A stretch of 64,000 bases of DNA from Candidatus Pacearchaeota archaeon CG_4_10_14_0_2_um_filter_35_33 (GTDB lineage: Archaea; Nanobdellota; Nanobdellia; Pacearchaeales; GW2011-AR1). The stretch is from NCBI GenBank assembly GCA_002792635.1, contig PFOR01000015.1:6744-70743 (forward strand), in the 5' to 3' direction. The first letter of the stretch is position 1. Each line of letters begins with the position of its first letter. The notes beneath the pieces are model-generated. The model saw only the letters and a list, made by a program, of their open reading frames with translations. It did no database searches and was not told where the DNA came from. Both the position numbers and the translations under genes were made by a program. Positions 24,377-41,493 of the stretch are shown in pieces.

Positions 24377-25093
24377 TTAAAGTTTTGACTGAATGATTTG
24401 ATTAAATACTTCAAAGGGTTGTGCACCACTTACAACTGTTCCTTCTCCGGTATTGCCTGAAGCAATCAAGAAGTAAGGTGTACCTCTTCCGCCTTTTGCC
24501 TGCGCTTCACTCATGTCTTCCTTGACATTTGCAACTTTTTCTCCTGAATCAAGGCATTCGTTGAATTTCTCTGTGTTTAATCCAAGTTGTACAGCGTATT
24601 CCTTGAATGTATCAACACCACCTGCAACTCCCTGCTCAAAGAGTATGTTATGCATTTCCACAAACATTCCCTGGTCTGCAGCACATTCAGATGCTTCTGC
24701 AGCCTTCTGAGCATCTGGATGGATGCTTGTCAAAGGAAACTGCTTGTAGACAATTGCAACCTTATCACTATATTCCGCCTTAATCTGGCTAACAGCTCCT
24801 AGATAAGCCCTCTGACAGAAAGGACATTCAAAGTCAGAGTATTCCACTACAAACACGTCAGAATTCATACTTCCCTGAAGGAAATTGTCATCTTCCGTAA
24901 CTTCTATATTGTAAGTAGCCCCTCTTCCGCTATTATCTTTAACCACATTGCCTGTCGGGCTAGGGTTATTTGGCAGTATAAATGCAACTCCGCCGATAAC
25001 AAGGACAGCTAGCAGGACAAAAGTGGAGTATTTCCACAAAGCGTCTTTCCTGATTTTTATTGTTCCGCTATCGTTATTTTGTTCTTCTTTCAT
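24377..25093 (-). CDS. Membrane-anchored DsbA-like thiol:disulfide oxidoreductase
   Basis: N-terminal helix followed by a thioredoxin fold with VVEYSDFECPFCQRAY (CPFC active site). Confidence 0.85.
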   Translation of the reverse strand: MKEEQNNDSGTIKIRKDALWKYSTFVLLAVLVIGGVAFILPNNPSPTGNVVKDNSGRGATYNIEVTEDDNFLQGSMNSDVFVVEYSDFECPFCQRAYLGAVSQIKAEYSDKVAIVYKQFPLTSIHPDAQKAAEASECAADQGMFVEMHNILFEQGVAGGVDTFKEYAVQLGLNTEKFNECLDSGEKVANVKEDMSEAQAKGGRGTPYFLIASGNTGEGTVVSGAQPFEVFNQIIQSKL

Positions 25094-25646
25094 TGTTTTT
25101 ACCCCCTTTCATTTGTTGAATAGTACATACCTCACAAATTGTTAAATCCTTCGATATTTTAAATATTGCGAATCCTATGATTATGATTGCCAGGACCGAG
25201 ATTTCTAGGCCTTTAAATGGGAGTAATGATATGAAAATTCCTCCTATTCCTAAGACAGCTATCAATCCAATTCCGCATGCTGCACATCCTGGGGCAAGAA
25301 GGGCGATAAATATTCCGACTGAACTTAATACCCCTGTCTTTTTGGACTTGTGTTTAGCATTTTTTATTTTAAAAGTTATTAAGGAGATTAAGATGCCTAT
25401 TAATAACGACGAGAGAACCAGGGAAATATAAGAATGAAGCAAGGTTGATTTATGGAAATCAATTGATCCATTAAACAAATAGATTATTCCAGACAGCAAG
25501 CCGTAGTTTTTTAAAAATGAGGAGAGAGTTTGATAATTTTGAATTATCACATTTAATATGTAAAAGATTAAAGCTATTATTATTGTTAATATTGCATATC
25601 CCGGCTTCTTGAATACAGTTTTCCAAACGTTTATTATTTCATTCAT
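25074..25646 (-). CDS. Polytopic membrane protein with two CxxC motifs (APGCAACG within a helix; CEVC near the C-terminus)
   Basis: 190 aa with about 5 helices. Its 3' end overlaps the DsbA-like gene start by 20 nt. Confidence 0.6.
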   Translation of the reverse strand: MNEIINVWKTVFKKPGYAILTIIIALIFYILNVIIQNYQTLSSFLKNYGLLSGIIYLFNGSIDFHKSTLLHSYISLVLSSLLIGILISLITFKIKNAKHKSKKTGVLSSVGIFIALLAPGCAACGIGLIAVLGIGGIFISLLPFKGLEISVLAIIIIGFAIFKISKDLTICEVCTIQQMKGGKNNERRTK

Positions 25647-25864
25647 ATTATTTCTATTTTATGTTTAATTCCAAACCAAATTAAGATAAACGCTATTATG
25701 ATGTAAATTGTAAGAATCACGGGATTATAGAATATTAAGAGAGAAAGGAGTTTTGTTTTAATTATATAATTCTGTCCTGATTCTGTTTGAATTTTTATAA
25801 AATAAGTGACTAGCAGAATCGCTAATATTGCTATGCCTATATAGAATGGGTATTTTGGTTTCAT
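25643..25864 (-). CDS. Small two-helix membrane protein
   Basis: 73 aa. Has 4-nt overlaps with both neighbours, which suggests an operon. Confidence 0.5.
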   Translation of the reverse strand: MKPKYPFYIGIAILAILLVTYFIKIQTESGQNYIIKTKLLSLLIFYNPVILTIYIIIAFILIWFGIKHKIEII

Positions 25865-26343
25865 TCCTTTAATACAACTACGTTAGTCATTCCTCTCCTC
25901 TTTCTTTCTACTAACTTGTGACCTTCTAATCTATCAATTACCCTCGTCATTTTTGCCTTTCCGAATCCTGTTTGTTCGATTAAATCTGCTTGAAAGATTG
26001 CTTTTTTTTCCTTAACGAGATTAAATACTTTCTTTTCCTCGGGTTTTAACCCATTTAAGTCGTATTTCTTAGGTTTTTGTTTTTCTTTTACTTTCTTTAC
26101 AATTATTCTTTCTTGTGGTTTTGAGAACACTAAGACCAGACCTATTATGACTAGTAAGGCTGCAATTGCAAAAGAAAGATAGGTTTGCTGGTCTATCGAC
26201 TGATACATTGGACATGATGTTCCATGTTCTGTTGAACAAGTTGCGTCGACTATGTCTCTCATTGTGTTATTAAATAAAAATATTATAAATATTATTACGA
26301 TTGCGATTCCGATAATTAAGTACCCAACTTTCTTATTTTCCAT
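25861..26343 (-). CDS. Membrane-anchored winged-helix (MarR/TrmB-like) transcriptional regulator with Cys-containing external loop
   Basis: From M25 of the listed ORF (25861..26415): helix, loop DATCSTEHGTSCPMYQ, helix, basic linker, then LNGLKPEEKKVFNLVKEKKAIFQADLIEQTGFGKAKMTRVIDRLEGHKLVERKRRGMTNVV (wHTH). Confidence 0.7.
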   Translation of the reverse strand: MENKKVGYLIIGIAIVIIFIIFLFNNTMRDIVDATCSTEHGTSCPMYQSIDQQTYLSFAIAALLVIIGLVLVFSKPQERIIVKKVKEKQKPKKYDLNGLKPEEKKVFNLVKEKKAIFQADLIEQTGFGKAKMTRVIDRLEGHKLVERKRRGMTNVVVLKE

Positions 26344-26387
26344 TGATTTTACTTGGAAACAGGCTTTAAGAAGTTTATGAATTTTCA

Positions 26388-26471
26388 TGAAACTGGGGCG
26401 TGAAACTAGCCTCATAAGATTTAGAAAATCTTAACAAAGCAAGGGTTTCACTGTGTGAAACTAGTTTCACA
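26388..26471. promoter_or_regulatory. Divergent control region with an 18-bp palindrome and extra half-sites
   Basis: Perfect palindrome TGTGAAACTAGTTTCACA at 26454..26471. Extra half-sites GTTTCAC at 26445..26451, GTGAAACTAG at 26400..26409 and TGAAACT at 26388..26394. TATA-like CTTAAATAAAA lies downstream. Confidence 0.65.
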
Positions 26472-26506: not shown

Positions 26507-27133
26507 ATGACTGAAAAAATGAATAAGGAGTTTGTGGCACAGATTGTTGTTATCTGTGTACTTGCGTTATTAATCTCATTTAACGTGGGAAGAATGTATT
26601 CTCCTGGATTATCTACAGGTATAAGAACAGTTTCTGCTTCTGATGTTATTCCTACTGGCATGCCTAGCATATATGGAGAAGAGCTAGGAATTAGTTATGA
26701 TGATATTTCACCTAATGACCCTAGGTTGGCAGATGCTACTATTAATAAGATGAGTGAATATGAGGATACGCAGTTAAATGAGGAACAGATGACTCATTAT
26801 ATTAATATAGCCGGTTCTATCAGTTGCGAGTATTGTTGTGGAGCCGAATCTATTATATTTAGTAATGGAGAGAGAGCTTGCGGATGTGCCCATAGTTATG
26901 CTATGAGGGGATTGGCAAAGTACTTGTTAATCAATCATCCTGAGATGGGTGATGATGAAATTCTTACGGAACTGGCTAAATGGAAAACTTTGTTTTTCCC
27001 TGGAATAATGGAAGCTAAGGCACAGGCATTAAAAGATAATGGGATTGAGTTTAACTATATCAATCTCAGTAGTAATGCCTACAGAGGAATTGAGAAGGGA
27101 CAAGGAAGTGGAGGCATGGTCGGAGGATGTTAA
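26507..27133 (+). CDS. Anchored Cys-motif protein (CEYCCG..ACGCAHS) with C-terminal GSGGMVGGC
   Basis: 208 aa. N-terminal helix, Cys cluster SISCEYCCGAESIIFSNGERACGCAHSY, and a terminal cysteine. Confidence 0.6.
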   Translation: MTEKMNKEFVAQIVVICVLALLISFNVGRMYSPGLSTGIRTVSASDVIPTGMPSIYGEELGISYDDISPNDPRLADATINKMSEYEDTQLNEEQMTHYINIAGSISCEYCCGAESIIFSNGERACGCAHSYAMRGLAKYLLINHPEMGDDEILTELAKWKTLFFPGIMEAKAQALKDNGIEFNYINLSSNAYRGIEKGQGSGGMVGGC

Positions 27134-27339
27134 AATTTTTGACTGCTGGTTTGATGCTGATGCCTGGAGTTCTGGCTTGTGGGCCTCATGAAGAAGCTGG
27201 ACATGGTTATAGTACGATGGGTCTTGGGTTTTCTGGAGGCTTATTTGGTTTTATTATACAAATTTTAATTATTGCTACCCTTGTGTTGGGAATATCATTA
27301 TTGGTTAAGAATCTAAATATGAAAGGAGGGAAAAGATGA
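27127..27339 (+). CDS. Small membrane protein with His/Met-rich segment
   Basis: 70 aa. Signal-like N-terminus ending VLAC, then GPHEEAGHGYSTMG, then a C-terminal helix. Confidence 0.5.
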   Translation: MLKFLTAGLMLMPGVLACGPHEEAGHGYSTMGLGFSGGLFGFIIQILIIATLVLGISLLVKNLNMKGGKR

Positions 27340-27503
27340 AAGTAAAAAAGAGCACTTTGTTGTGGGTTGTGATTGCAGTTCTTTTCATAGCTGTTTTGTG
27401 GATGACATTCCAAACAGGAAATGTTGATGTTGCTTCGCAAGCCGCTGAAACTACATCAAGATCTGCATCTGCTTATGGAAGTGGCATGGTAGGGGGTTGT
27501 TAA
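27336..27503 (+). CDS. 55-aa anchored peptide ending GSGMVGGC
   Basis: Hand-found: MKVKKSTLLWVVIAVLFIAVLWMTFQTGNVDVASQAAETTSRSASAYGSGMVGGC*. ATGA overlap with the upstream gene; the next gene starts 2 nt after its stop. Confidence 0.45.
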   Translation: MKVKKSTLLWVVIAVLFIAVLWMTFQTGNVDVASQAAETTSRSASAYGSGMVGGC

Positions 27504-27504
27504 G

Positions 27505-27975
27505 ATGAAAGGATTGTTTATTTTTATTGGTATTGCTATTTTATTAGTTGGAGCGTTTTTTGTGATTGGTGGAGGGATTACAGGTAATGCGGTTGGAACT
27601 GCATCTGCACAAGTAACAATGTATAAATCACCTACATGCGGATGTTGTGTGGGGCACGGAGGATATTTAGAGAGAGTGGGATTTGATGTTAATACAATTG
27701 CAGATGATGGAACTTTGGCAAAGGTTAAAGATGAGTTTGGTATTCCTGCAAATATGAGAAGCTGTCATACAGCAGTGATTGGAGATTATTTTGTTGAAGG
27801 GCACATTCCAATTGAGGTTATTGAAAAGTTATTAGCTGAGAAACCGGATATTGACGGTATTGCGTTGCCGGGTATGCCTTCTGGAAGCCCGGGTATGCCT
27901 GGTGTGAAGAGGGGAGACTGGGTAATTTATGCAATTAAAGATGGTCAAGTGATTAGAGAGTTCGTGAGAGTATGA
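27505..27975 (+). CDS. DUF411 (CopG-like) metal-binding protein, membrane anchored
   Basis: SPTCGCC, CHTAVIGDYFVEGHIP and PGMPSGSPGMPG. Confidence 0.8.
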   Translation: MKGLFIFIGIAILLVGAFFVIGGGITGNAVGTASAQVTMYKSPTCGCCVGHGGYLERVGFDVNTIADDGTLAKVKDEFGIPANMRSCHTAVIGDYFVEGHIPIEVIEKLLAEKPDIDGIALPGMPSGSPGMPGVKRGDWVIYAIKDGQVIREFVRV

Positions 27976-28403
27976 GATATGAAAAACAAACCTACTGGAT
28001 TGTGATATTCGCTCTGGTTATTGTTTTGTTTGTTAGCTATCTACCCAATAGTCATTCAATGAATCTGAGTGACATGAGTATGGAAGAAAAAAAAGAATTT
28101 CACATTTCTTTGAAGACAGACATACAAGAAGAGTTATTGGAGCAGAGCAGGTATAGATGTTGTTTAAAAAAGCCATGTACCTATTGTATTGAAAAGACAC
28201 CAGGACATGGAGAGGGAGCAACATGTGATTGTTTGAGCGATATTGTGAATGGAAAACATCCGTGTGGTGAATGTATTGGAGAAATCTTAGAGGGTCATGG
28301 TAATCCGTATTTGAAAGAGTATTTCGCTGAAGCAATAGCTGAGGAAGTTGGCATGAATCATTTAGATGAAATACAAAAAATAATTGATGAGAAGTATGCT
28401 TAA
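27972..28403 (+). CDS. Anchored Cys/His-rich protein
   Basis: CCLKKPCTYCIEKTPGHGEGATCDCLSDIVNGKHPCGECIGEILEGHGNP. Confidence 0.6.
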   Translation: MRYEKQTYWIVIFALVIVLFVSYLPNSHSMNLSDMSMEEKKEFHISLKTDIQEELLEQSRYRCCLKKPCTYCIEKTPGHGEGATCDCLSDIVNGKHPCGECIGEILEGHGNPYLKEYFAEAIAEEVGMNHLDEIQKIIDEKYA

Positions 28404-28404
28404 A

Positions 28405-28842
28405 ATGGAAAAAGATAACTCAATATTATATGGATTGTTAGCGGGAGCAGGATTACTAGTTTTTTATCTTGCTGTAGTTTCTGCTTTTCAAGGTATGGAA
28501 TTCGCGTTTATTAATCTTAGAAGTCTTTGGTTTTTGGTATTTCCCTTGGCTATTGGATTTGGATGGCAGGTTGGACTATTTGCTTCCATAAAACACACAG
28601 CACAGATTAATGGTATTGTTGCAGGAACAGGGGCTGTTTCTGCCGGAGGGATGCTGGCTTGCTGTAGTCACTTTTTATTGAACATGCTCCCTTTTCTTGG
28701 AGCTGCTGGATTGGCAACTGTATTGATGGAATATCAAGCATGGTTTTTAGGTGTTGGTTTGCTGGCGAATGTTGCTGGGATTAGATTCATGTTAAAGCAT
28801 AAGAAGAAAATGAAAAAGATGAAAGGAGGTTGTTGTAAATGA
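28405..28842 (+). CDS. Four-helix membrane protein with intramembrane vicinal Cys pair (MLACCSH) and C-terminal GGCCK
   Basis: The ATG at 28405 follows the upstream stop directly. The listed ORF begins earlier at a TTG (28384). Confidence 0.6.
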   Translation: MEKDNSILYGLLAGAGLLVFYLAVVSAFQGMEFAFINLRSLWFLVFPLAIGFGWQVGLFASIKHTAQINGIVAGTGAVSAGGMLACCSHFLLNMLPFLGAAGLATVLMEYQAWFLGVGLLANVAGIRFMLKHKKKMKKMKGGCCK

Positions 28843-29063
28843 AGAAAGCTATTTTGTATATTTTAATTGCTATTCTGTTAATTGTAATAATTGTTATGAC
28901 CTTCTTTCCTAATATGATTTATGCTTTTCAGCATGGGGTAACTGGAAACGTTGTTGCAGAAGATGCTGGAGATAAATGTACTCATCCAGAAGGAACTTCA
29001 GTAGAAGATTGGCAGACACATATGTCGCACCACCCGAATATCTATAGGGAATGTTTGGAGTGA
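28839..29063 (+). CDS. Small anchored His/Cys-motif protein
   Basis: 74 aa. Helix, then VTGNVVAEDAGDKCTHPEG..WQTHMSHHPNIYRECLE. Confidence 0.5.
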   Translation: MKKAILYILIAILLIVIIVMTFFPNMIYAFQHGVTGNVVAEDAGDKCTHPEGTSVEDWQTHMSHHPNIYRECLE

Positions 29064-32582: not shown

Positions 32583-33167
32583 ATGGTAGCTAAAAAAGAA
32601 AGCTTGGAATTGATGACTGATAAAGAATTAGCCCAATTAGCCCAAAGAGTTGTTGAAGGAGATGATGAAGCATTTGATAGAATAATGCAGATTTATTCGC
32701 CATATTTTTACAAATTATGTTTAAATTTCGTACATTCTAAGGACAAAGCAGATGACATTCACCAAGAGGCTACAATAAAGATGTGGGAAAAAATGAGTCA
32801 ATACGACTCCTCGAGAACCTTCATAAAATGGGCAACTGCGATTTATAAAAACACAGCAATAGACTATCTAAGAAAAGTCAAGTCGAGAAATAATATTCAC
32901 TATGTAAACAACATAGATTTCTCAAGATATGCAACACCAGAACGAACAACCTCAATTTCAGAAGAGGAAAGGTTAGACCTGGAGAAGGGTATAACTTCAT
33001 TACCTGAAACTCCTAGAGAAGTAATAACAGTTATCTATTTTAGAGGATACTCTTTATCCGAAACTGCCAGATTATTGGGAAAACCTGGCGGTACAATAAA
33101 ATCAGCATTAAGTCGGGGTTTAAATAAATTAAGAGAGAAAAGTGAATTAGAAAAACAAATAGCTTAA
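32583..33167 (+). CDS. Bacterial-type ECF (sigma-70 family) RNA polymerase sigma factor
   Basis: Region 2: DDIHQEATIKMWEKMSQYDSSRTFIKWATAIYKNTAIDYLRK. Region 4: LPETPREVITVIYFRGYSLSETARLLGKPGGTIKSALSRGLNKLRE. Confidence 0.85.
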   Translation: MVAKKESLELMTDKELAQLAQRVVEGDDEAFDRIMQIYSPYFYKLCLNFVHSKDKADDIHQEATIKMWEKMSQYDSSRTFIKWATAIYKNTAIDYLRKVKSRNNIHYVNNIDFSRYATPERTTSISEEERLDLEKGITSLPETPREVITVIYFRGYSLSETARLLGKPGGTIKSALSRGLNKLREKSELEKQIA

Positions 33168-36066: not shown

Positions 36067-36086
36067 TTGTGAAACTAGTTTCACAA
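36067..36086. promoter_or_regulatory. Perfect 20-bp palindrome TTGTGAAACTAGTTTCACAA (operator candidate)
   Basis: The 18-bp core at 36068..36085 ends 35 nt before ATG 36121. TATA-like AATATATATTA lies between. Confidence 0.65.
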
Positions 36087-36120
36087 TAACCAATATATAT
36101 TAGAATTCATAAATAATAGC

Positions 36121-36606
36121 ATGAAAAAAGTAATCCTGGTTTTGATGTTTGTTCTCTTGATAGGGGGAGTAATGGCTCATGGGGAGGAAACTTTTGAGGA
36201 AGCAGAAGAAATAATCATACAGAAAATATCCTGTGATGAGCTGACAGAGAATCAGTTGGAGGTTTTGGGAGATTATTACATGGAGCAGATGCATCCTGGA
36301 GAGTTACATGAGATAATGGATGAAAAGATGGGGGGAGAAGGTTCTGAATCATTAAGACAGGCTCATATCAATATGGCTCTAGCGTTTTATTGCGGAGAGC
36401 ATGATGAGTTTTCTGGAAGTATGATGGACGTTATGATGGGAAGGACAGAAGATAATAGTTATGGAATGATGGGAGGCTATGGAATGTATGGATTTAATTG
36501 GTTTAGGATTATTATACAACTGGCAGTCACTACCCTGTTAGTCTTATTAATTATCTGGTTTATCAGGAAGCTAAATGAAAAACCAAAAAAGAGAAAGAGA
36601 AAATGA
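36121..36606 (+). CDS. Secreted/anchored Met/His-rich protein
   Basis: Signal peptide, HGEE.., MMDVMMGRTEDNSYGMMGGYGMYG, and a C-terminal helix. Confidence 0.6.
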   Translation: MKKVILVLMFVLLIGGVMAHGEETFEEAEEIIIQKISCDELTENQLEVLGDYYMEQMHPGELHEIMDEKMGGEGSESLRQAHINMALAFYCGEHDEFSGSMMDVMMGRTEDNSYGMMGGYGMYGFNWFRIIIQLAVTTLLVLLIIWFIRKLNEKPKKRKRK

Positions 36607-36986
36607 AAAAGAATCTTGTTTATTTGATATTAGGAGCAATTATTATTATGGCTGTTGGCGTAACCTTTGTTGATTTTGATAATCAGATTGTTTCTGTTAA
36701 TAGTGAGGAGTTTGCTAATCTAATAGATGCTGCATTTGTTTTACAAGTACATGAGCCGTATTATGGAGAGATAGAAGGGACTGATTTAGTTGTTGAAGAT
36801 TGGGATAATCTGGACTCTTATATAGATAAGCTTCCCAAGGATAAGAAGATTGCAATTTACTGCCGTTCGGGAAGAATGTCAGGAATTGTTGCAGAGCAGT
36901 TAGCAGAGAGGGGTTATGATGTATATGATTTAGAAGGGGGAATGAATGCCTGGCAGGAATCGGGCAAGGAGTTAATAGTAAGATGA
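36603..36986 (+). CDS. Membrane-anchored rhodanese-domain protein
   Basis: Active-site loop IAIYCRSGRMSG and ..LEGGMNAWQ. Confidence 0.85.
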   Translation: MKKNLVYLILGAIIIMAVGVTFVDFDNQIVSVNSEEFANLIDAAFVLQVHEPYYGEIEGTDLVVEDWDNLDSYIDKLPKDKKIAIYCRSGRMSGIVAEQLAERGYDVYDLEGGMNAWQESGKELIVR

Positions 36987-37360
36987 TTGGATTTTCTAAG
37001 AAAACGAATTTAGGATTTGAGGAGGCAGAGAAGAAAGTTAGGCAGGAGCTAGAGAAAGAGGGATTTGGTGTTCTTACAGAGATTGATGTTTCTGCTGTAT
37101 TAAAGAAGAAGCTGGATAAAGATTATGGTAAATACAAGATTCTTGGAGCTTGTAATCCTCCTTTTGCCTTTAAGGCTTTAGAAGCTGAAAAAGAGATTGG
37201 GCTTTTATTGCCTTGTAATGTTATTATTTATGAGAATAATGGTGTAAATGTCTCGGCTGTGAATCCAATGGAGGCTATGGAGATGATTGAAAATGAGGGA
37301 TTAAAAGGGATTGCAGAAGAAGTTTCAGAAAAACTGAAGATGGTGATTGAGAGGGTTTGA
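36983..37360 (+). CDS. DUF302-family protein
   Basis: [44 protein letters not shown]. Confidence 0.75.
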
Positions 37361-37389
37361 TTTTTATAGTTTCGGATATTAATGATAAG

Positions 37390-39672
37390 ATGAAAAAAGC
37401 GATAATAGATATAGAAGGAATGCATTGTGCTTCATGTGCTGCCAACCTGGGAAAGAGTTTGAAAAAGGTTAAAGGAGTTAAAGATGCTAATGTTAATTTA
37501 GTTGTTAAGAAAGGATATTTGGAGTTATCAGGAAAAGTAAAGGAAGAGGATTTGAGGAAAGCAGTTTCTAAGGTTGGAAATTATAAGATTGCTAATATTG
37601 ATTATGAAAATTATGGTAAAGACGATAAAGAAAATAATTATCGCAATACTATGGGTGGTGGGGAGAGAGATGATAATCACAAGATGAATCATGATGGGCA
37701 CGATATGAGGGGCGGGATGAATCATGGTAAACACACAGGACATGAACATGGCAGTGTGGATGAAAAAGAAATAAAATCATGGAAGAGGAAGATGTGGATT
37801 GCATGGCCTATTACAATTGTGATAATGTTTGTCATGTTTTCTGAAAGGCTTTTTGGTCTAAGGCTGTTTGAGGAGAATATTATAGTTATTGTTTTGCTTA
37901 TATTGAGCTTTCCTGTTATTTTTATTCTTGGCTGGCAAACATTAAAGGGCGGTTTGAAAGGATATATTAGTTTCTATTTCAACATGGATTCACTAATCGG
38001 CTTGGGAACTGTTATTGCTTGGCTTACAGGAATACTGGCTTTATTTGGCATCACGCAGGACTTTTCTGGTATCTCAGCTATGATAATGACTTTCTTCATT
38101 ACTGGAAAGTATGTTGAAGTAAAGGCAAGAGGGCAGGCAGGGCAAGAAATTAAAAAATTGTTGGAATTGGGTGCTAAGAAGGCAAGAATTATTAGAAATG
38201 GAAAGGAAATAGGGATTGATATTTCAGAAGTTAAGGTGGGAGATATTATGATTGTTAAACCAGGAGAGAAAATCCCGACAGATGGAATTATTGTTAAAGG
38301 AGAAAGCAGTATTGATGAGAGCAGTGTTACTGGAGAATCAGTTCCTATTGATAAAGTTCTTGGAGACAAGGTTATAGGAGCAACTGTTAATCAGGATGGT
38401 ATTTTAGAAGTAAAGGCAGAGAAAATAGGAAGAGATACTTTTTTATCTAATGTGATTAAACTTGTTGAGAATGCTCAAGGAAGCAAGATTCCAATTCAGG
38501 CATTTTCTGATAAGATAACTAATGTGTTTGTTCCTGTGATTTTAGGATTGACAATATTAACCTTTGTAGGATGGTATTATTATACGGGAGATTTGAGTCG
38601 GGCTATTGGTGTTGCTATTTCTGTTTTAGTCATAGCTTGTCCTTGTGCTCTTGGTTTAGCAACCCCAACAGCGTTAATGGTTGGCTCTGGAATAGGAGCT
38701 AAAAGAGGGATATTAATCAGAAAGGGAGAGGCAATTCAGACTATGAAAGAGGTAAAAATAGTGATGTTTGATAAAACAGGAACAATTACAAAGGGGAAGC
38801 CTGAAGTTGTTGATATTTATTCACTAGTAAAAGAGAATTATCTGATGGAGGTTGTTGCATCCATAGAAAAGCAGAGCGAACATCCTATTTCTCATGCAAT
38901 TGTGGAAAAAGCCGGCTTGAAGAAGTATAAAGAGGTTTCAGGGTTTAAGATATTAAGAGGCAGAGGAGTTACAGGAGTTATTGGAAAGAAGAAGATTTTG
39001 ATAGGAAATAGGACTTTGATGGATGAGAACAAGGTTAAACTAGATAAACTTGAGAAGAAAGTTAAGGAATACGAATCTAAAGGGCAAACAACTATGATTG
39101 TTGCTGAAAATAAGGAGGCGATTGGTGTTATTTCGGTTGCGGATGATGTTAAGGAAGATTCCAAGGAAGCAATAAAGGAACTGCATGATTCGGGATATAA
39201 GACAGTTATGATTACAGGAGACAATGAAGCAACTGCTAGGGCCATTGCTAAGAAGGTTGGGATTGATGAAGTTATTGCTAACGTTCTTCCGGAAGATAAA
39301 GTTAGAAAAGTAGAAGAATTACAAGAAAAAGGAATGGTGGCATTTGTAGGAGATGGTGTTAATGATGCTCCTGCATTAAAACAGGCAAATGTCGGGATTG
39401 CTATGGGTACCGGGACGGATATTGCAATAGAGGCAGGAGATATTGTTCTTGTTAAGGGTTCCTTACAAGGAGTTGTGGGAGCTATCAATTTATCAAAAGC
39501 CACGTTCAAAAAAATAAAGCAGAATTTATTCTGGGCTTTTGGATATAATGTTATTGCAATACCAATCGCCGTAGCAGGATTTCTAAATCCTGCGATTGCT
39601 GAGATAGCGATGGCTCTTTCTAGTGTCACTGTTGTGGGGAATGCTAATTTGTTGAGGAAAAAGAAGATTTAG
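37390..39672 (+). CDS. copA: Copper-translocating P1B-type ATPase
   Basis: HMA domain GMHCASC, His-rich linker, CPC, DKTGTIT and GDGVNDAP. The listed ORF begins at a TTG (37357); the first ATG is at 37390. Confidence 0.95.
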
Positions 39673-39706: not shown

Positions 39707-39808
39707 ATGAAGAAATCATTTCAGAAGATGTTGCCCTGGTTGATTGTTGCTTTAATTATAGGAGTATTAATTGGTTGGACGATTAAGAGTGGCGGATGCG
39801 GGGTTTAG
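39707..39808 (+). CDS. Candidate 33-aa single-helix peptide ending SGGCGV
   Basis: Hand-found: MKKSFQKMLPWLIVALIIGVLIGWTIKSGGCGV*. It lies 35 nt after copA. Confidence 0.35.
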   Translation: MKKSFQKMLPWLIVALIIGVLIGWTIKSGGCGV

Positions 39809-40584: not shown

Positions 40585-41493
40585 ATGGTATTGTGTATAA
40601 TTGCTCTGCCTGTATTTGCAATTTTAGGATTATTTAGTGTGAAGTATAGGCAGCTTGCTAGTGAAAGTTTGGATTGTATGTTTAGGACAGTTACATTTAG
40701 GCGATGTCAATTGGGATTGGATGATAGGATAAAATCAGATTTGACAGGGAAATTGATGAAAAGATCTCCTGCTCTTGCTCGATTTTTCTATAATTATTAT
40801 AAATTGATTTCGTGGATTGTATTGGTATTATTTATCTGGAGTGCTTATGCTACGGGAGTAGGATTGTATAACTATTATTTATATGGGAATTGTAATGGTC
40901 CTGATTCTGATGGCTTTTGTTTATTAAACCCAACGGGAAGCAATAGTGGTACATCGAAGATTATTGGAAGTATCCATGGAGAAGTAATCTTACCAGTAGT
41001 TGAAGAGGATGATTATATTTTTGGGAATCCTGAGGCTGAATTAACAATAATAGAGTTTGGGTGTTATAGATGTCCCTATACTAAACAAGCAGAAAGTATT
41101 GTTGATGAAGTTTTGGAATATTATAATGGTAGGGTTAATTTACAATTTAAGAGTATTTTATTAGAGCATGAATTGAGTTATGAATCTGCTTTGGCTGCTA
41201 ATTGTGCTTTGGAACAAGGGAAATATGAGGAATATCATGATAGGTTATTTGAGGAGCAAGAGATGTTGAATTATCTGGATTTTGTTAGAATTGCTAATGA
41301 TATTGATTTGGATTCCGAACAATTCAATGAATGTCTTGAAAGCGAAAGATATGAGGACGAAATTAGAGCAGACCACCAGGCAGGGATTGATGCGGGCATT
41401 CAGGGAACACCGACATTCTTTATTGGGGATGAGGTTATAGTCGGACCAAAACCTTTCAAGACGTTTAAGACAGTGATTGATAGGCAGTTATGA
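40585..41493 (+). CDS. Fusion of a two-helix Cys-containing membrane domain and a DsbA-like thioredoxin domain
   Basis: N-terminal part has C31/C41 and CNGPDSDGFC. C-terminal part has IIEFGCYRCPYTKQ (CxxC) and ..GIQGTPTFFIG. Confidence 0.75.
   Translation: MVLCIIALPVFAILGLFSVKYRQLASESLDCMFRTVTFRRCQLGLDDRIKSDLTGKLMKRSPALARFFYNYYKLISWIVLVLFIWSAYATGVGLYNYYLYGNCNGPDSDGFCLLNPTGSNSGTSKIIGSIHGEVILPVVEEDDYIFGNPEAELTIIEFGCYRCPYTKQAESIVDEVLEYYNGRVNLQFKSILLEHELSYESALAANCALEQGKYEEYHDRLFEEQEMLNYLDFVRIANDIDLDSEQFNECLESERYEDEIRADHQAGIDAGIQGTPTFFIGDEVIVGPKPFKTFKTVIDRQL

Follow-up and report, generated by a model that had tools for sequence, protein, structure and literature searches.

A seven-gene block around CopG in a Pacearchaeota genome as the likely envelope arm of a copper regulon

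Here, we describe seven open reading frames (ORFs), all on the plus strand, which span positions 26507-29063 of the window, the whole 64,000-nucleotide stretch of DNA that was analysed (ORF listing with translations). The host is a tiny groundwater archaeon of the Pacearchaeota (DPANN), a single-membrane cell. The genes, referred to as g1 to g7, are as follows.

26507..27133, plus strand: g1, 208 aa, with an N-terminal anchor, an extracytoplasmic helical domain, a flexible Gly/Ser linker and a terminal MVGGC
27127..27339, plus strand: g2, 70 aa, with a signal-like segment, the His/Met motif CGPHEEAGHGYSTMG, one helix and a basic tail
27336..27503, plus strand: g3, 55 aa, an arm-only protein with a membrane anchor, a linker of ~25 residues and a terminal GMVGGC
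27505..27975, plus strand: g4, 156 aa, a membrane-anchored CopG (DUF411) with a CxCC motif (TCGCC), SCHT and GMPSGSPGM
27972..28403, plus strand: g5, 143 aa, an anchored domain of ~80 residues with 8 invariant Cys and 3 invariant His
28405..28842, plus strand: g6, 145 aa (alternative starts at 28396 and 28384), a membrane protein of four predicted helices with a Lys-rich cytoplasmic tail ending in GGCCK
28839..29063, plus strand: g7, 74 aa, with a membrane anchor and an external mini-domain of 26 residues

From g1 to g7 the successive junctions are a 7 nt overlap, a 4 nt overlap, a 1 nt gap, a 4 nt overlap, a 1 nt gap and a 4 nt overlap. The tight co-directional packing reported in an earlier note on this DNA (1 nt gaps and 4-7 nt overlaps) thus holds at all junctions, and the genes are probably translationally coupled. 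The six Cys/His/Met motifs that the same note had listed are all found in the translations. Its claim of a hydrophobic helix plus a soft-metal motif for each gene stands for the helices, at least one of which is present in every product, but not for the motifs, which number six for seven genes, g3 having a GSGMVGGC tail only. The products g1, g3, g4, g5 and g7 each consist of a single N-terminal anchor followed by an acidic domain. Cysteine makes up 3.17% of the seven products against 0.84% of the other window ORFs of at least 100 aa (odds ratio 3.9, Fisher p = 5e-8), and Met and His are enriched as well.

Could this be a chance run of short ORFs or a decayed, functionless remnant? Three of the ORFs are shorter than 75 aa, as such a reading would have it, but for every one there are conserved homologues in which motif residues are invariant, and syntenic partners recur across dozens to hundreds of genomes. 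The conservation data refute this explanation, to which we give next to no probability. Since relatives of every ORF were recovered by word, profile or HMM search, together with synteny, all seven are, as judged by comparative analysis, real and conserved genes.

The block is conserved across DPANN genomes, a point that had been put forward for checking: g1 is upstream of g6 in 51/51 DPANN loci whose upstream sequence is 3 kb or longer, g7 comes after g6 in 63/66 archaeal loci, and the window order g1-g3-DUF411-g6-g7 recurs in 27 loci. As an exact set of seven, the block is peculiar to this genome. Elsewhere in DPANN, the g2 and g5 slots are taken by an HCPLCT or CVIC...ECCKKW membrane protein, a PCYCGC protein, a rhodanese or DUF302. 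In 15 g6-centred loci, the gene immediately before g6 encodes a PCYCGC protein, and these neighbours of g6 are possibly interchangeable parts. The HMM and structure-based searches identified g4 as DUF411 and gave the remaining six products no relative in Pfam, NCBIfam or the PDB. DUF411, named by Pfam/NCBIfam for g4 only, is thus the sole recognised family of the set, as had been supposed, and the other six products are, on the basis of their homologues, members of conserved, unnamed families.

The match of g4 to Pfam PF04214 reaches 88.5 bits against a cut-off of 27 (E = 2.2e-25), and that to Pseudomonas aeruginosa CopG (PDB 6WIS) has a phmmer E of 9.5e-21, with TCGCC of g4 aligned with CGCC of 6WIS and GMPSGSPGM with GMPVGSPGM. 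By these alignments, g4 is a member of the CopG/DUF411 family with intact copper-cluster motifs. According to a review (PMC7558416), the CxCC motif of CopG and adjacent Met residues hold a tetranuclear copper cluster, and CopG has been proposed to interconvert Cu(I) and Cu(II) and discussed as a possible copper donor to multicopper oxidases.

In the loci examined, the DUF411 gene is always paired with either the 8-Cys domain of g5 or the HCPLCT membrane protein. The g5 domain carries the motif CC-x4-CxxC-x6-H-x5-CxC-x8-H-x-CxxC-x7-H, and its 608 relatives come from DPANN and from CPR bacteria. In each of the four further distinct contexts that were examined (five loci, L085-L089), its gene comes immediately after DUF411, and none of the 84 g6 loci contains it. 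Searches of Pfam (with 31 members) and of the PDB gave no match for g5; compared with the PF13798 proteins of the loci, it has an hhalign probability of 5.6% and a pairwise E of 0.007, with the Cys/His columns in register.

For g1, an alignment of 39 sequences, 3 bacterial members included, shows the invariant motif C107-x2-CC...C125-x-C127-x-H129. Its relatives number 1965 among clusters at 90% identity, every one of them named hypothetical and none with a Pfam domain, and the terminal tail is kept in 54/55 homologues. Sequence and profile searches of Pfam and the PDB with g1 gave no match. The AlphaFold2 model of g1 has a pLDDT of 90 and a pTM of 0.77, and Foldseek found no PDB fold match for it (best E = 2). 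Homologues of g3 occur in 47/66 archaeal loci, often in 2-3 copies, placed between g1 and DUF411. The recovered g3 ORFs end in MVGGC save three (one truncated tail and two DUF411 cross-hits), the sole motif of g3 being the terminal ...GSGMVGGC tail that it has in common with g1.

Two families were compared with g1. For CcmH (PF03918), which on these results would be a very remote relative at most, 0/39 g1 members match at E up to 1, a comparison by hhalign with the single CcmH sequence of E. coli gives a probability of 0.4%, no CcmH chain is among the best 50 of 80 Foldseek PDB matches (all with E of at least 2), and CcmH was not found in a PDB profile search with g1. A suggestive local correspondence, without statistical support, is seen between the g1 segment around CEYCC and the LRCxxC helix-loop of CcmH from E. 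coli, the two being in register. For PCYCGC (PF13798, NF041379), there is no family match and the hhalign probability is 4%.

The small g2 product matches an HMM built from short Met/His-rich bitopic proteins of related loci (E = 1.7e-8). Elsewhere in the window this HMM matches only ORF 36121-36606, in its C-terminal part; this ORF opens the CopA operon described below, and all remaining window ORFs have E > 0.09. By this profile match, g2 is a member of the unnamed Met/His-rich bitopic microproteins of copper islands. Its slot between g1 and g3 is not conserved in related archaeal loci.

For the membrane protein g6, word search recovered 219 relatives, and a profile search recovered 1008 clusters (50% identity), which span DPANN archaea, CPR and other bacteria. 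The protein gave no match in Pfam, NCBIfam or the PDB, and its AlphaFold2 model is weak (pLDDT 71, pTM 0.34). The third predicted helix holds an invariant M83-x2-C86-C87-x-H89, and the residues invariant across archaea and bacteria include Q55, M83, C86, C87, H89, P96, Y110 and Q111. No conserved acidic residue for proton coupling is seen in the alignment. Among 57 longer relatives, 16 bear N-terminal fusions (YHS in 9, HMA in 4 and HMBD in 3) and none has a thioredoxin-like domain; some relatives join YHS, the g6 core, an extra helix and an external GGHHR domain in a single chain. In g7, the external mini-domain carries the invariant motif C47-x10-W-x2-H-x2-HH-x6-C72; fusions of g7 with g6 (L056, 253 aa) and with a rhodanese domain (L039) also occur.

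The earlier note had likened g6 to the small mercury transporters MerF and MerT, a likeness under which the set would take up Hg(II) or another thiophilic metal by passing it from the g6 Cys pair to a cytoplasmic Cys pair. The architecture bears out the likeness: in the window g6 a helix Cys pair is followed by a hairpin, then by a basic stretch and a Cys pair at the end, in MerF register, and the intramembrane vicinal pair C86-C87 is invariant. In addition, models of MerP, MerA and MerTP give scores with the HMA domains of g6 fusion relatives. Homology is another matter: hhalign of the g6 family against MerF, whose query sequence was verified against PDB 2M67 beforehand, gives a probability of 0.6% (E = 0.095), and g6 has no MerF, MerT or MerC match in Pfam/NCBIfam at E up to 1. 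The C-terminal vicinal pair falls away as a MerF/MerT-type feature, since the GGCCK ending is particular to this genome, the DPANN consensus being GGxCH with a single Cys-His and bacterial members lacking a tail Cys. The HMA domain of the g6 fusion protein P0344 scores best against CopZ models, and the associated ATPase has a Cu+ signature. As had been stated earlier, MerA, MerR and MerP are absent as far as a reading of the window and of the neighbourhood listings and scans goes, in which none was noticed. With no detectable MerF/MerT homology, a second Cys pair that is not conserved and no mer gene noticed, Hg(II) is unlikely as the substrate, and we regard MerT/MerF-style uptake as very improbable.

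The surroundings of the block point to another metal. Three further features of the window bear on this.

25861..26415, minus strand: a divergent, membrane-tethered winged-helix regulator, DUF7343/MarR-like (Pfam DUF7343 E = 1.8e-7, MarR_2 4.6e-5)
26454..26471, no strand assigned: an 18-bp perfect palindrome, TGTGAAACTAGTTTCACA, 35 nt upstream of the g1 start codon, a candidate operator
36069..39672, plus strand: a second palindrome operon encoding a Met-rich protein, an anchored rhodanese, DUF302 and a Cu+-type P1B ATPase (Pfam)

The palindrome core, GTGAAACnnGTTTCAC, occurs in three window copies (at 26455, 36069 and, with 1 mismatch, 40533) against 0.01 expected, and the copy before the ATPase operon lies at 36069-36084. 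The palindrome is also present in 12 related loci, mostly upstream of g1 or DUF411 homologues: in 7 of the 12 it precedes the g1 homologue, with ~40-55 nt to the start listed for that gene (38 nt in L028), and in L085 it is 52 nt upstream of the DUF411 gene. A homologue of the regulator is found within 6 kb of g6 in 44/66 archaeal loci, mostly directly upstream of g1, and we infer that the winged-helix regulator is the probable reader of the palindrome.

The window ATPase has CPC of TM4 at residue 428, YN of TM5 at 730 and MALSS of TM6 at 752, along with an N-terminal HMA CASC at 24; the combination of CPC, YN and MxxSS we take to be the P1B-1 Cu+/Ag+ signature of the established classification. 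CopA-like genes, counted by tblastn with one query in loci of at least 12 kb and possibly including P-type ATPases of other specificity, lie within ~9 kb of g6 in 36/43 archaeal and 9/11 bacterial loci. In bacteria, the g6 gene adjoins genes for a CsoR-family repressor and for a small YHS protein. The neighbourhoods of g6 and the block also include genes for cupredoxins, multicopper oxidases and HMA proteins. In light of the palindrome before the Cu+-type ATPase operon, the CopA-like pumps nearby, the CsoR and YHS neighbours and the YHS, HMA and HMBD fusions, copper is most likely the metal handled by the seven-gene set. Of the earlier suggestion of a relay for Cu(I), Hg(II) or thiols, what survives is thus a soft-metal context pointing to copper, with a thiol-redox role as a serious competitor and Hg(II) being unlikely.

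In light of this context, what might the role of the set be? We consider it fairly probable that the set is the envelope arm of the Pacearchaeota copper regulon, a Cu(I) relay of the envelope, not described before, that is built around a thiol-lined conduit formed in the membrane by g6 and g7. On a rise in copper, the winged-helix regulator would leave the palindrome and both operons would be made. Outside the membrane, tethered ligands, namely the microprotein g2 with its His/Met motif and the flexible arms of g3 and g1 that end in Met-Val-Gly-Gly-Cys, would catch Cu(I) and hand it by ligand exchange to the multi-cysteine domains, which are the CxxCC/CxCxH domain of g1 and CopG with its constant partner g5. 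The transmembrane conduit would be g6 plus g7, the external His-triad mini-domain of g7 connecting to the intramembrane Met/Cys-Cys/His site of g6, from which Cu(I) would reach the cytoplasmic Cys tail or, in bacterial relatives, a YHS, HMA or HMBD domain.

As for the direction of transport, an inward hand-off may be slightly favoured, based on the logic of MerT/MerF, CopC-CopD and CTR1 and on the lack of an energy-coupling domain in g6. CsoR regulation in bacteria argues equally well for export, possibly by Cu+/H+ exchange at thiols. Importing the copper that CopA exports would bring no obvious gain to a single-membrane cell, and the direction of g6 is therefore a real gap in the relay reading. 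Also speaking against a relay are the lack of a conserved acidic residue and the poor model of g6 mentioned above.

The module might also serve copper supply and not defence, with g6 and g7 as an importer and CopG, g5 and g1 as insertion chaperones for envelope cuproproteins such as cupredoxins, COX2-like proteins and multicopper oxidases. Genes for such cuproenzymes (cupredoxin, COX2-like, multicopper oxidase) adjoin the block in several loci, the donor role discussed for CopG would fit, and the layout of g6 and g7 is importer-like, with His/Met on the outside, a Met/Cys site within the membrane and a Cys-His tail in the cytoplasm. However, no recognised cuproenzyme lies near the operon within the window, the control site is common to the module and an efflux-type ATPase operon, and the bacterial relatives adjoin a CsoR-family repressor. 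CsoR derepresses detoxification genes under copper excess. We therefore hold a supply role to be unlikely.

A somewhat better-placed alternative, which we consider clearly less probable than the copper relay but still a serious rival, is an extracytoplasmic thiol-disulfide relay in which the Cys motifs carry electrons and not metal. In such a relay, g6 would move reducing equivalents like CcdA/DsbD, the MVGGC arms and g1 would act like CcmG/CcmH, and the whole would keep envelope Cys (those of CopG included) reduced or mend copper-induced wrong disulfides like Scs/DsbC. The block neighbourhoods leave room for this reading at the expense of a metal relay: the opposite strand immediately upstream encodes a DsbA-like protein and a CxxC membrane protein, a second DsbA-like gene in the window lies behind a palindrome variant, bacterial g6 is flanked by DsbD_TM and redoxin genes, and anchored rhodanese domains are found in the variable slot or joined to g7. 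The register of the g1 CEYCC segment with CcmH is in its favour too, but kinship with CcmH finds no backing in the searches reported above. HMA is also fused to DsbD-like membrane domains in the neighbourhoods, so that an HMA fusion alone is no proof of metal transport. Against electron transfer, the domains fused to g6 are metal-binding (YHS, HMBD and HMA) and not thioredoxin-like, the invariant g6 motif joins two Cys with Met and His in one helix, which is a ligand set and not a redox pair, and g7, g2 and the bacterial GGHHR partner are His/Met-rich and not Cys-based. To our knowledge, a vicinal Cys-Cys disulfide is strained, and such a pair is not used by known Dsb or Ccd conduits, from which g6 differs in this respect.

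Returning to the copper relay, we tentatively suggest, as a bolder and more doubtful extension, that g6 represents a new, widespread prokaryotic class of thiol-lined Cu(I) permeases working by ligand exchange, which together with the MVGGC swinging arms and the g1 and g5 domains makes up a trans-envelope copper relay. Copper may pass from an external His-rich partner through the intramembrane Met/Cys-Cys/His site to a cytoplasmic YHS, HMA or Cys-tail acceptor. If so, g1 and g5 would be two new multi-cysteine domains, g1 being one without a solved fold relative. We know of no described cop, cus, pco or mer system that contains such a trans-envelope relay.

How does the set compare with known systems? 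With csoR-copZ-copA efflux operons it has in common that bacterial g6 adjoins a CsoR-family repressor, a YHS protein and a P1B ATPase, and that the candidate operator of the window module is common to the ATPase operon. The regulator in the window differs, being a membrane-tethered DUF7343/MarR-like winged helix and not CsoR, CopY or CueR, and described cop operons have no counterpart for six of the seven structural genes. With CopG of bacteria, g4 shares CxCC, SCHT, the Met-rich GMPxGSPGM loop, a non-cytoplasmic site and a genetic link to a Cu+ ATPase; it differs in being tethered by an N-terminal helix in a single-membrane archaeon and in its partner, no g5-like or HCPLCT protein being mentioned for bacterial CopG in the part of the review cited (PMC7558416). 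CcmH and PCYCGC/CYCXC proteins resemble g1 and g5 in being anchored outside the cytoplasm, in their helical domains and in a Cys motif placed where a helix meets a loop, although neither g1 nor g5 has a Pfam or NCBIfam match to either family.

MerF/MerT (PDB 2M67, 2H3O) and g6 are small membrane proteins with a helix-borne vicinal Cys pair and a cytoplasmic metal hand-off site, and in both cases HMA-domain partners or fusions exist. Unlike MerF/MerT, g6 has four helices instead of two or three, its Cys pair lies in helix 3 with an invariant Met and His, its second Cys pair is not conserved, and its context is one of copper and not mer. The copper importers CopC-CopD and YcnJ of bacteria and CTR1 of eukaryotes, whose layout is well established, resemble the window in combining a His/Met element outside the cell (g7 and g2), a Met/Cys/His site inside the membrane (g6) and a Cys-His tail in the cytoplasm, and as in YcnJ the external partner is sometimes fused to the membrane core in g6 relatives. 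From CopC, CopD and Ctr, g6 is set apart by having no Pfam match and by its Cys-Cys pair, which stands in place of Met or His filters.

Here, we propose that the seven co-directional genes g1 to g7, grouped around a DUF411 (CopG) gene, would encode a Cu(I) ligand-exchange relay at the cell envelope. The genes are arranged in the window as follows:

26507-27133, + strand: g1, ORF of 208 aa
27127-27339, + strand: g2, ORF of 70 aa
27336-27503, + strand: g3, ORF of 55 aa
27505-27975, + strand: g4 (DUF411), ORF of 156 aa
27972-28403, + strand: g5, ORF of 143 aa
28405-28842, + strand: g6, ORF of 145 aa
28839-29063, + strand: g7, ORF of 74 aa

The tight packing described in the earlier note is borne out (four junctions overlap, by 7, 4, 4 and 4 nt, and two leave a gap of 1 nt), and every motif that it quoted was found in the translations. 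Alternative starts are possible for g6 (ATG 28396, TTG 28384); the N-termini of its homologues agree best with 28405. In a simple hydropathy scan, an acidic domain follows a single N-terminal anchor in each of g1, g3, g4, g5 and g7. g2 combines a signal-like segment with one helix and a basic tail, and g6 is polytopic with 8 Lys/Arg among its last 15 residues. The cysteine content of the g1-g7 products is 3.17%, compared with 0.84% for the remaining long ORFs of the window (Fisher p = 5e-8), and Met and His are likewise enriched. The sequencing runs containing the region are groundwater and aquifer DNA runs only; no RNA run containing it was found.

These genes belong to large families. Close relatives of g6 number 219, share 63-72% identity with it and come from assemblies of Nanoarchaeota, Pacearchaeota and Woesearchaeota; a profile search of 1.84 billion representatives returned 1008 clusters. 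For g5 there are 608 relatives and for g1 1965. All of the latter are annotated as hypothetical, and one, from Candidatus Pacearchaeota archaeon CG_4_9_14_3_um_filter_35_19, is 100% identical. Pfam and NCBIfam scans of the seven products, and of the whole alignments of g1 and g5, named DUF411 only, the one family already recognised from the sequence. Scanning species-representative genomes with the g6 alignment yielded 80 loci (64 archaeal, 16 bacterial), which were compared with the window proteins by tblastn; with four further loci counted, this gave 66 non-duplicate archaeal loci. The neighbourhood recurs: g7 follows g6 in 63 of the 66, and wherever at least 3 kb of sequence upstream of g6 is available (51 loci), g1 lies there on the same strand; DUF411 is present in 37 of these. 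A homologue of the divergent winged-helix gene 5' of g1 (DUF7343/MarR-like), the candidate regulator, is nearby in 44 of the 66. Together, g1, g3, g4, g6 and g7 co-occur in 28 loci and keep the window's order in 27 of them.

The exact seven-gene composition is a local variant of this conserved block. The tblastn comparison did not find g2 and g5 at their window positions in the other loci. After DUF411, other genomes have a 170-aa HCPLCT membrane protein, and the slot just upstream of g6 is occupied by a CVIC...ECCKKW four-helix protein (36 loci), a soluble ...LECCxE protein (20 loci) or a PCYCGC protein (15 loci), with an anchored rhodanese and DUF302 as further alternatives. Single-linkage clustering of the neighbourhood ORFs fused all the anchored families into one cluster via shared anchors and tails, and only the separate clusters 1-31 were used.

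Which metal might the cluster handle? The palindrome TGTGAAACTAGTTTCACA, a candidate operator, sits 35 nt 5' of g1. Its core occurs again before a second operon at 36121-39672 and, with one mismatch, before a DsbA-like gene at 40585 (3 occurrences in the window, 0.01 expected). Twelve related loci contain it too, in most cases upstream of their g1 homologue; the distance to the listed start is about 40-55 nt in seven loci and 38 nt in L028. In L085 it precedes DUF411 instead. Products of the 36121 operon are a Met-rich protein, an anchored rhodanese, DUF302 and an ATPase whose CPC, YN and MxxSS motifs and HMA domain are the signature of Cu+/Ag+ pumps. Of the loci spanning 12 kb or more, 36 of 43 from archaea and 9 of 11 from bacteria have a CopA-like gene in the flanking sequence examined, and no mer genes were noticed in reading through the neighbourhood listings. 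This genomic context points to copper rather than mercury. The literature search found no functional study on MVGGC, PCYCGC or DPANN copper resistance, and for the six unnamed families it returned neither metal-binding nor transport experiments.

The product of g4 matches Pfam DUF411 at 88.5 bits and P. aeruginosa CopG (6WIS) with a phmmer E of 9.5e-21, the CGCC, SCHT and GMPxGSPGM loop being aligned; by sequence, we identify it as CopG. According to a review (PMC7558416), CopG is a thioredoxin-like periplasmic protein whose tetranuclear copper cluster is held by CxCC and two Met; it is described there as linked to copA and cus genes, with oxidation of Cu(I) as its proposed activity. The adjoining g5 belongs to an unnamed family in which eight Cys and three His, all within about 50 residues, are invariant, and neither a Pfam scan of the family alignment nor a PDB sequence-profile search found a relative. 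It lies directly 3' of DUF411 in all four other distinct contexts examined (five loci, archaeal and CPR bacterial) and was not found in 84 g6-centred loci; g5 is part of a DUF411-g5 pair usually located away from g6. Its similarity to the PCYCGC proteins is not significant (probability 5.6%), nor is that of g1.

In g1, residues C107, C110, C111, C125, C127 and H129 are invariant, and the terminal Met-Val-Gly-Gly-Cys (MVGGC) arm is retained even in bacterial homologues. The AlphaFold2 model is confident (pLDDT 90, pTM 0.77), and Foldseek against the PDB gave no fold match (best E = 2, TM of at most 0.19 among the matches listed). A PDB sequence-profile search gave no meaningful match; g1 is confidently predicted to have a fold without a solved relative. 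Kinship with CcmH was considered and is not supported: 39 g1 members have no Pfam match, the hhalign probability versus E. coli CcmH is 0.4%, and no CcmH appears among the PDB sequence matches or the Foldseek matches listed. A very remote link is possible from the local register around CxxC. g3 has nothing beyond an anchor and a linker that leads to the same MVGGC tail; such genes number one to three per related locus and fall into three subtypes. The Met/His-rich bitopic microproteins, a family frequent in these neighbourhoods, include g2 (HMM E = 1.7e-8). Many g1, g3 and g6 homologues (L002:4255-4497, L057:8905-9366, L003:2956-3654 and others) open on the cytoplasmic side with an M(D/E)CC... 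or ...CCKD motif, ahead of the anchor helix, so that in the single-pass ones both extreme termini carry Cys, one on each side of the membrane; g1 and g3 of the window are without this motif. Right after the copper ATPase, a 33-aa ORF with one helix (39707-39808) ends in ...KSGGCGV, another tail of Gly-Gly-Cys type.

The membrane conduit would be formed by g6, in which M83, C86, C87 and H89 of one helix, together with Q55, P96, Y110 and Q111, are kept across archaea and bacteria, and by g7, with conserved C47, W58, H61, H64, H65 and C72; the two are fused in L056. Among 57 longer g6 members, the N-terminal domain is YHS in 9, HMA in 4 and HMBD in 3, and some carry YHS, the g6 core, one further helix and an external GGHHR-motif domain in one chain. 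In bacterial loci this external domain is encoded just after g6, and YHS often just before it, adjoining a CsoR-family repressor gene. The fusions place the N-terminus and the Lys-rich C-terminus of g6 in the cytoplasm and the partner domain outside, and they explain why some source annotations of g6 relatives read "P-type Cu+ transporter". By sequence, g6 has the hallmarks of a metal permease, and the metal-binding domains to which it is fused are those that copper pumps also carry. The main rival explanation is that the cluster relays thiols and disulfides instead of metal, because Dsb-type genes are constant neighbours; against this, for g6, are the metal-binding fusions and the Met/His that accompany its Cys pair. 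The external domain of about 100 residues (THSVELD...W.G..GGHHR.G.L.F; L072:3306-3770, L083:8971-9879, P0262) occupies in bacteria the place of archaeal g7 and has only a sub-threshold Pfam match (DUF5643, E = 6e-5).

The earlier note had likened g6 to MerF and MerT. The register is reproduced (Cys pair, hairpin, basic stretch, terminal Cys), but comparison of the g6 profile with MerF, whose sequence was checked against PDB 2M67, gave a probability of 0.6%; we thus reject homology and regard the resemblance as architectural. The C-terminal vicinal pair GGCCK, also noted there, is present in the window's protein but not conserved, tails being mostly GGxCH in DPANN relatives and without Cys in bacteria. 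A PDB sequence-profile search with g6 gave no meaningful match, and its structure model is poor, Foldseek returning one meaningless match.

Several neighbouring genes are also of interest. In CPR bacterial loci (L072:2031-2672, also L076 and L078), the gene just 5' of YHS and g6 encodes a membrane protein of the isoprenylcysteine carboxyl methyltransferase family (ICMT/PEMT; Pfam ICMT E = 2e-7). A family modifying C-terminal cysteines beside a system rich in terminal Cys may be a link of interest; ICMT-like genes are also found in other metal-resistance clusters. Between the window's two operons, a 194-aa ORF (32583-33167) shares 30% identity (E = 7e-16) with an ECF-type sigma-70 factor (L086:527-1102) about 3 kb upstream of a DsbA-DUF411-g5-CopA cluster in a CPR bacterium (Magasanikbacteria); the presence on an archaeal contig of a sigma factor of bacterial type suggests CPR-DPANN gene flow around these islands. 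A polytopic protein at 24377-25646 (- strand), adjoining a DsbA-like gene, has an intramembrane APGCAACG / AAGCPTCG motif. Its family (loci cluster 3, e.g. L001:6652-7170) lies downstream of g7 in 25 related loci. The protein weakly matches the NCBIfam MerT/CopZ fusion selenoprotein model (E = 0.07) and may be a second thiol-lined membrane conduit. Membrane-anchored rhodanese domains, probably extracytoplasmic because of their anchors, are constant island members (L039:9436-9966, L003:4699-5580, window 36603-36986) and in one case are fused to g7.

To our knowledge, extracytoplasmic copper handling is well described only in Gram-negative bacteria, and we know of almost nothing beyond CopA in archaea and the ultra-small DPANN/CPR organisms. 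Here, five or six conserved families without a name, Pfam model or solved structure are subject, in hundreds of genomes, to regulation of the copper type. Among them, g1 combines a predicted fold without a solved relative with an invariant five-residue terminal Cys arm. If true, the proposed relay would introduce a transporter family and a carrier principle that are new to copper biology, and would give thousands of hypothetical proteins in groundwater metagenomes a function.

In this relay, tethered His/Met and terminal-Cys arms would capture the ion, the multi-Cys domains (g1, and CopG with g5) would hold or convert it, and g7 with g6 would link the outside with a cytoplasmic acceptor. As to direction, regulation of the CsoR type speaks for export, which could plausibly be driven by proton-for-Cu+ exchange at the thiols. 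An inward hand-off is favoured by the lack of an energy-coupling domain and, by analogy, by the layout that g6 and g7 appear to have in common with MerT/F, CopCD and CTR1.
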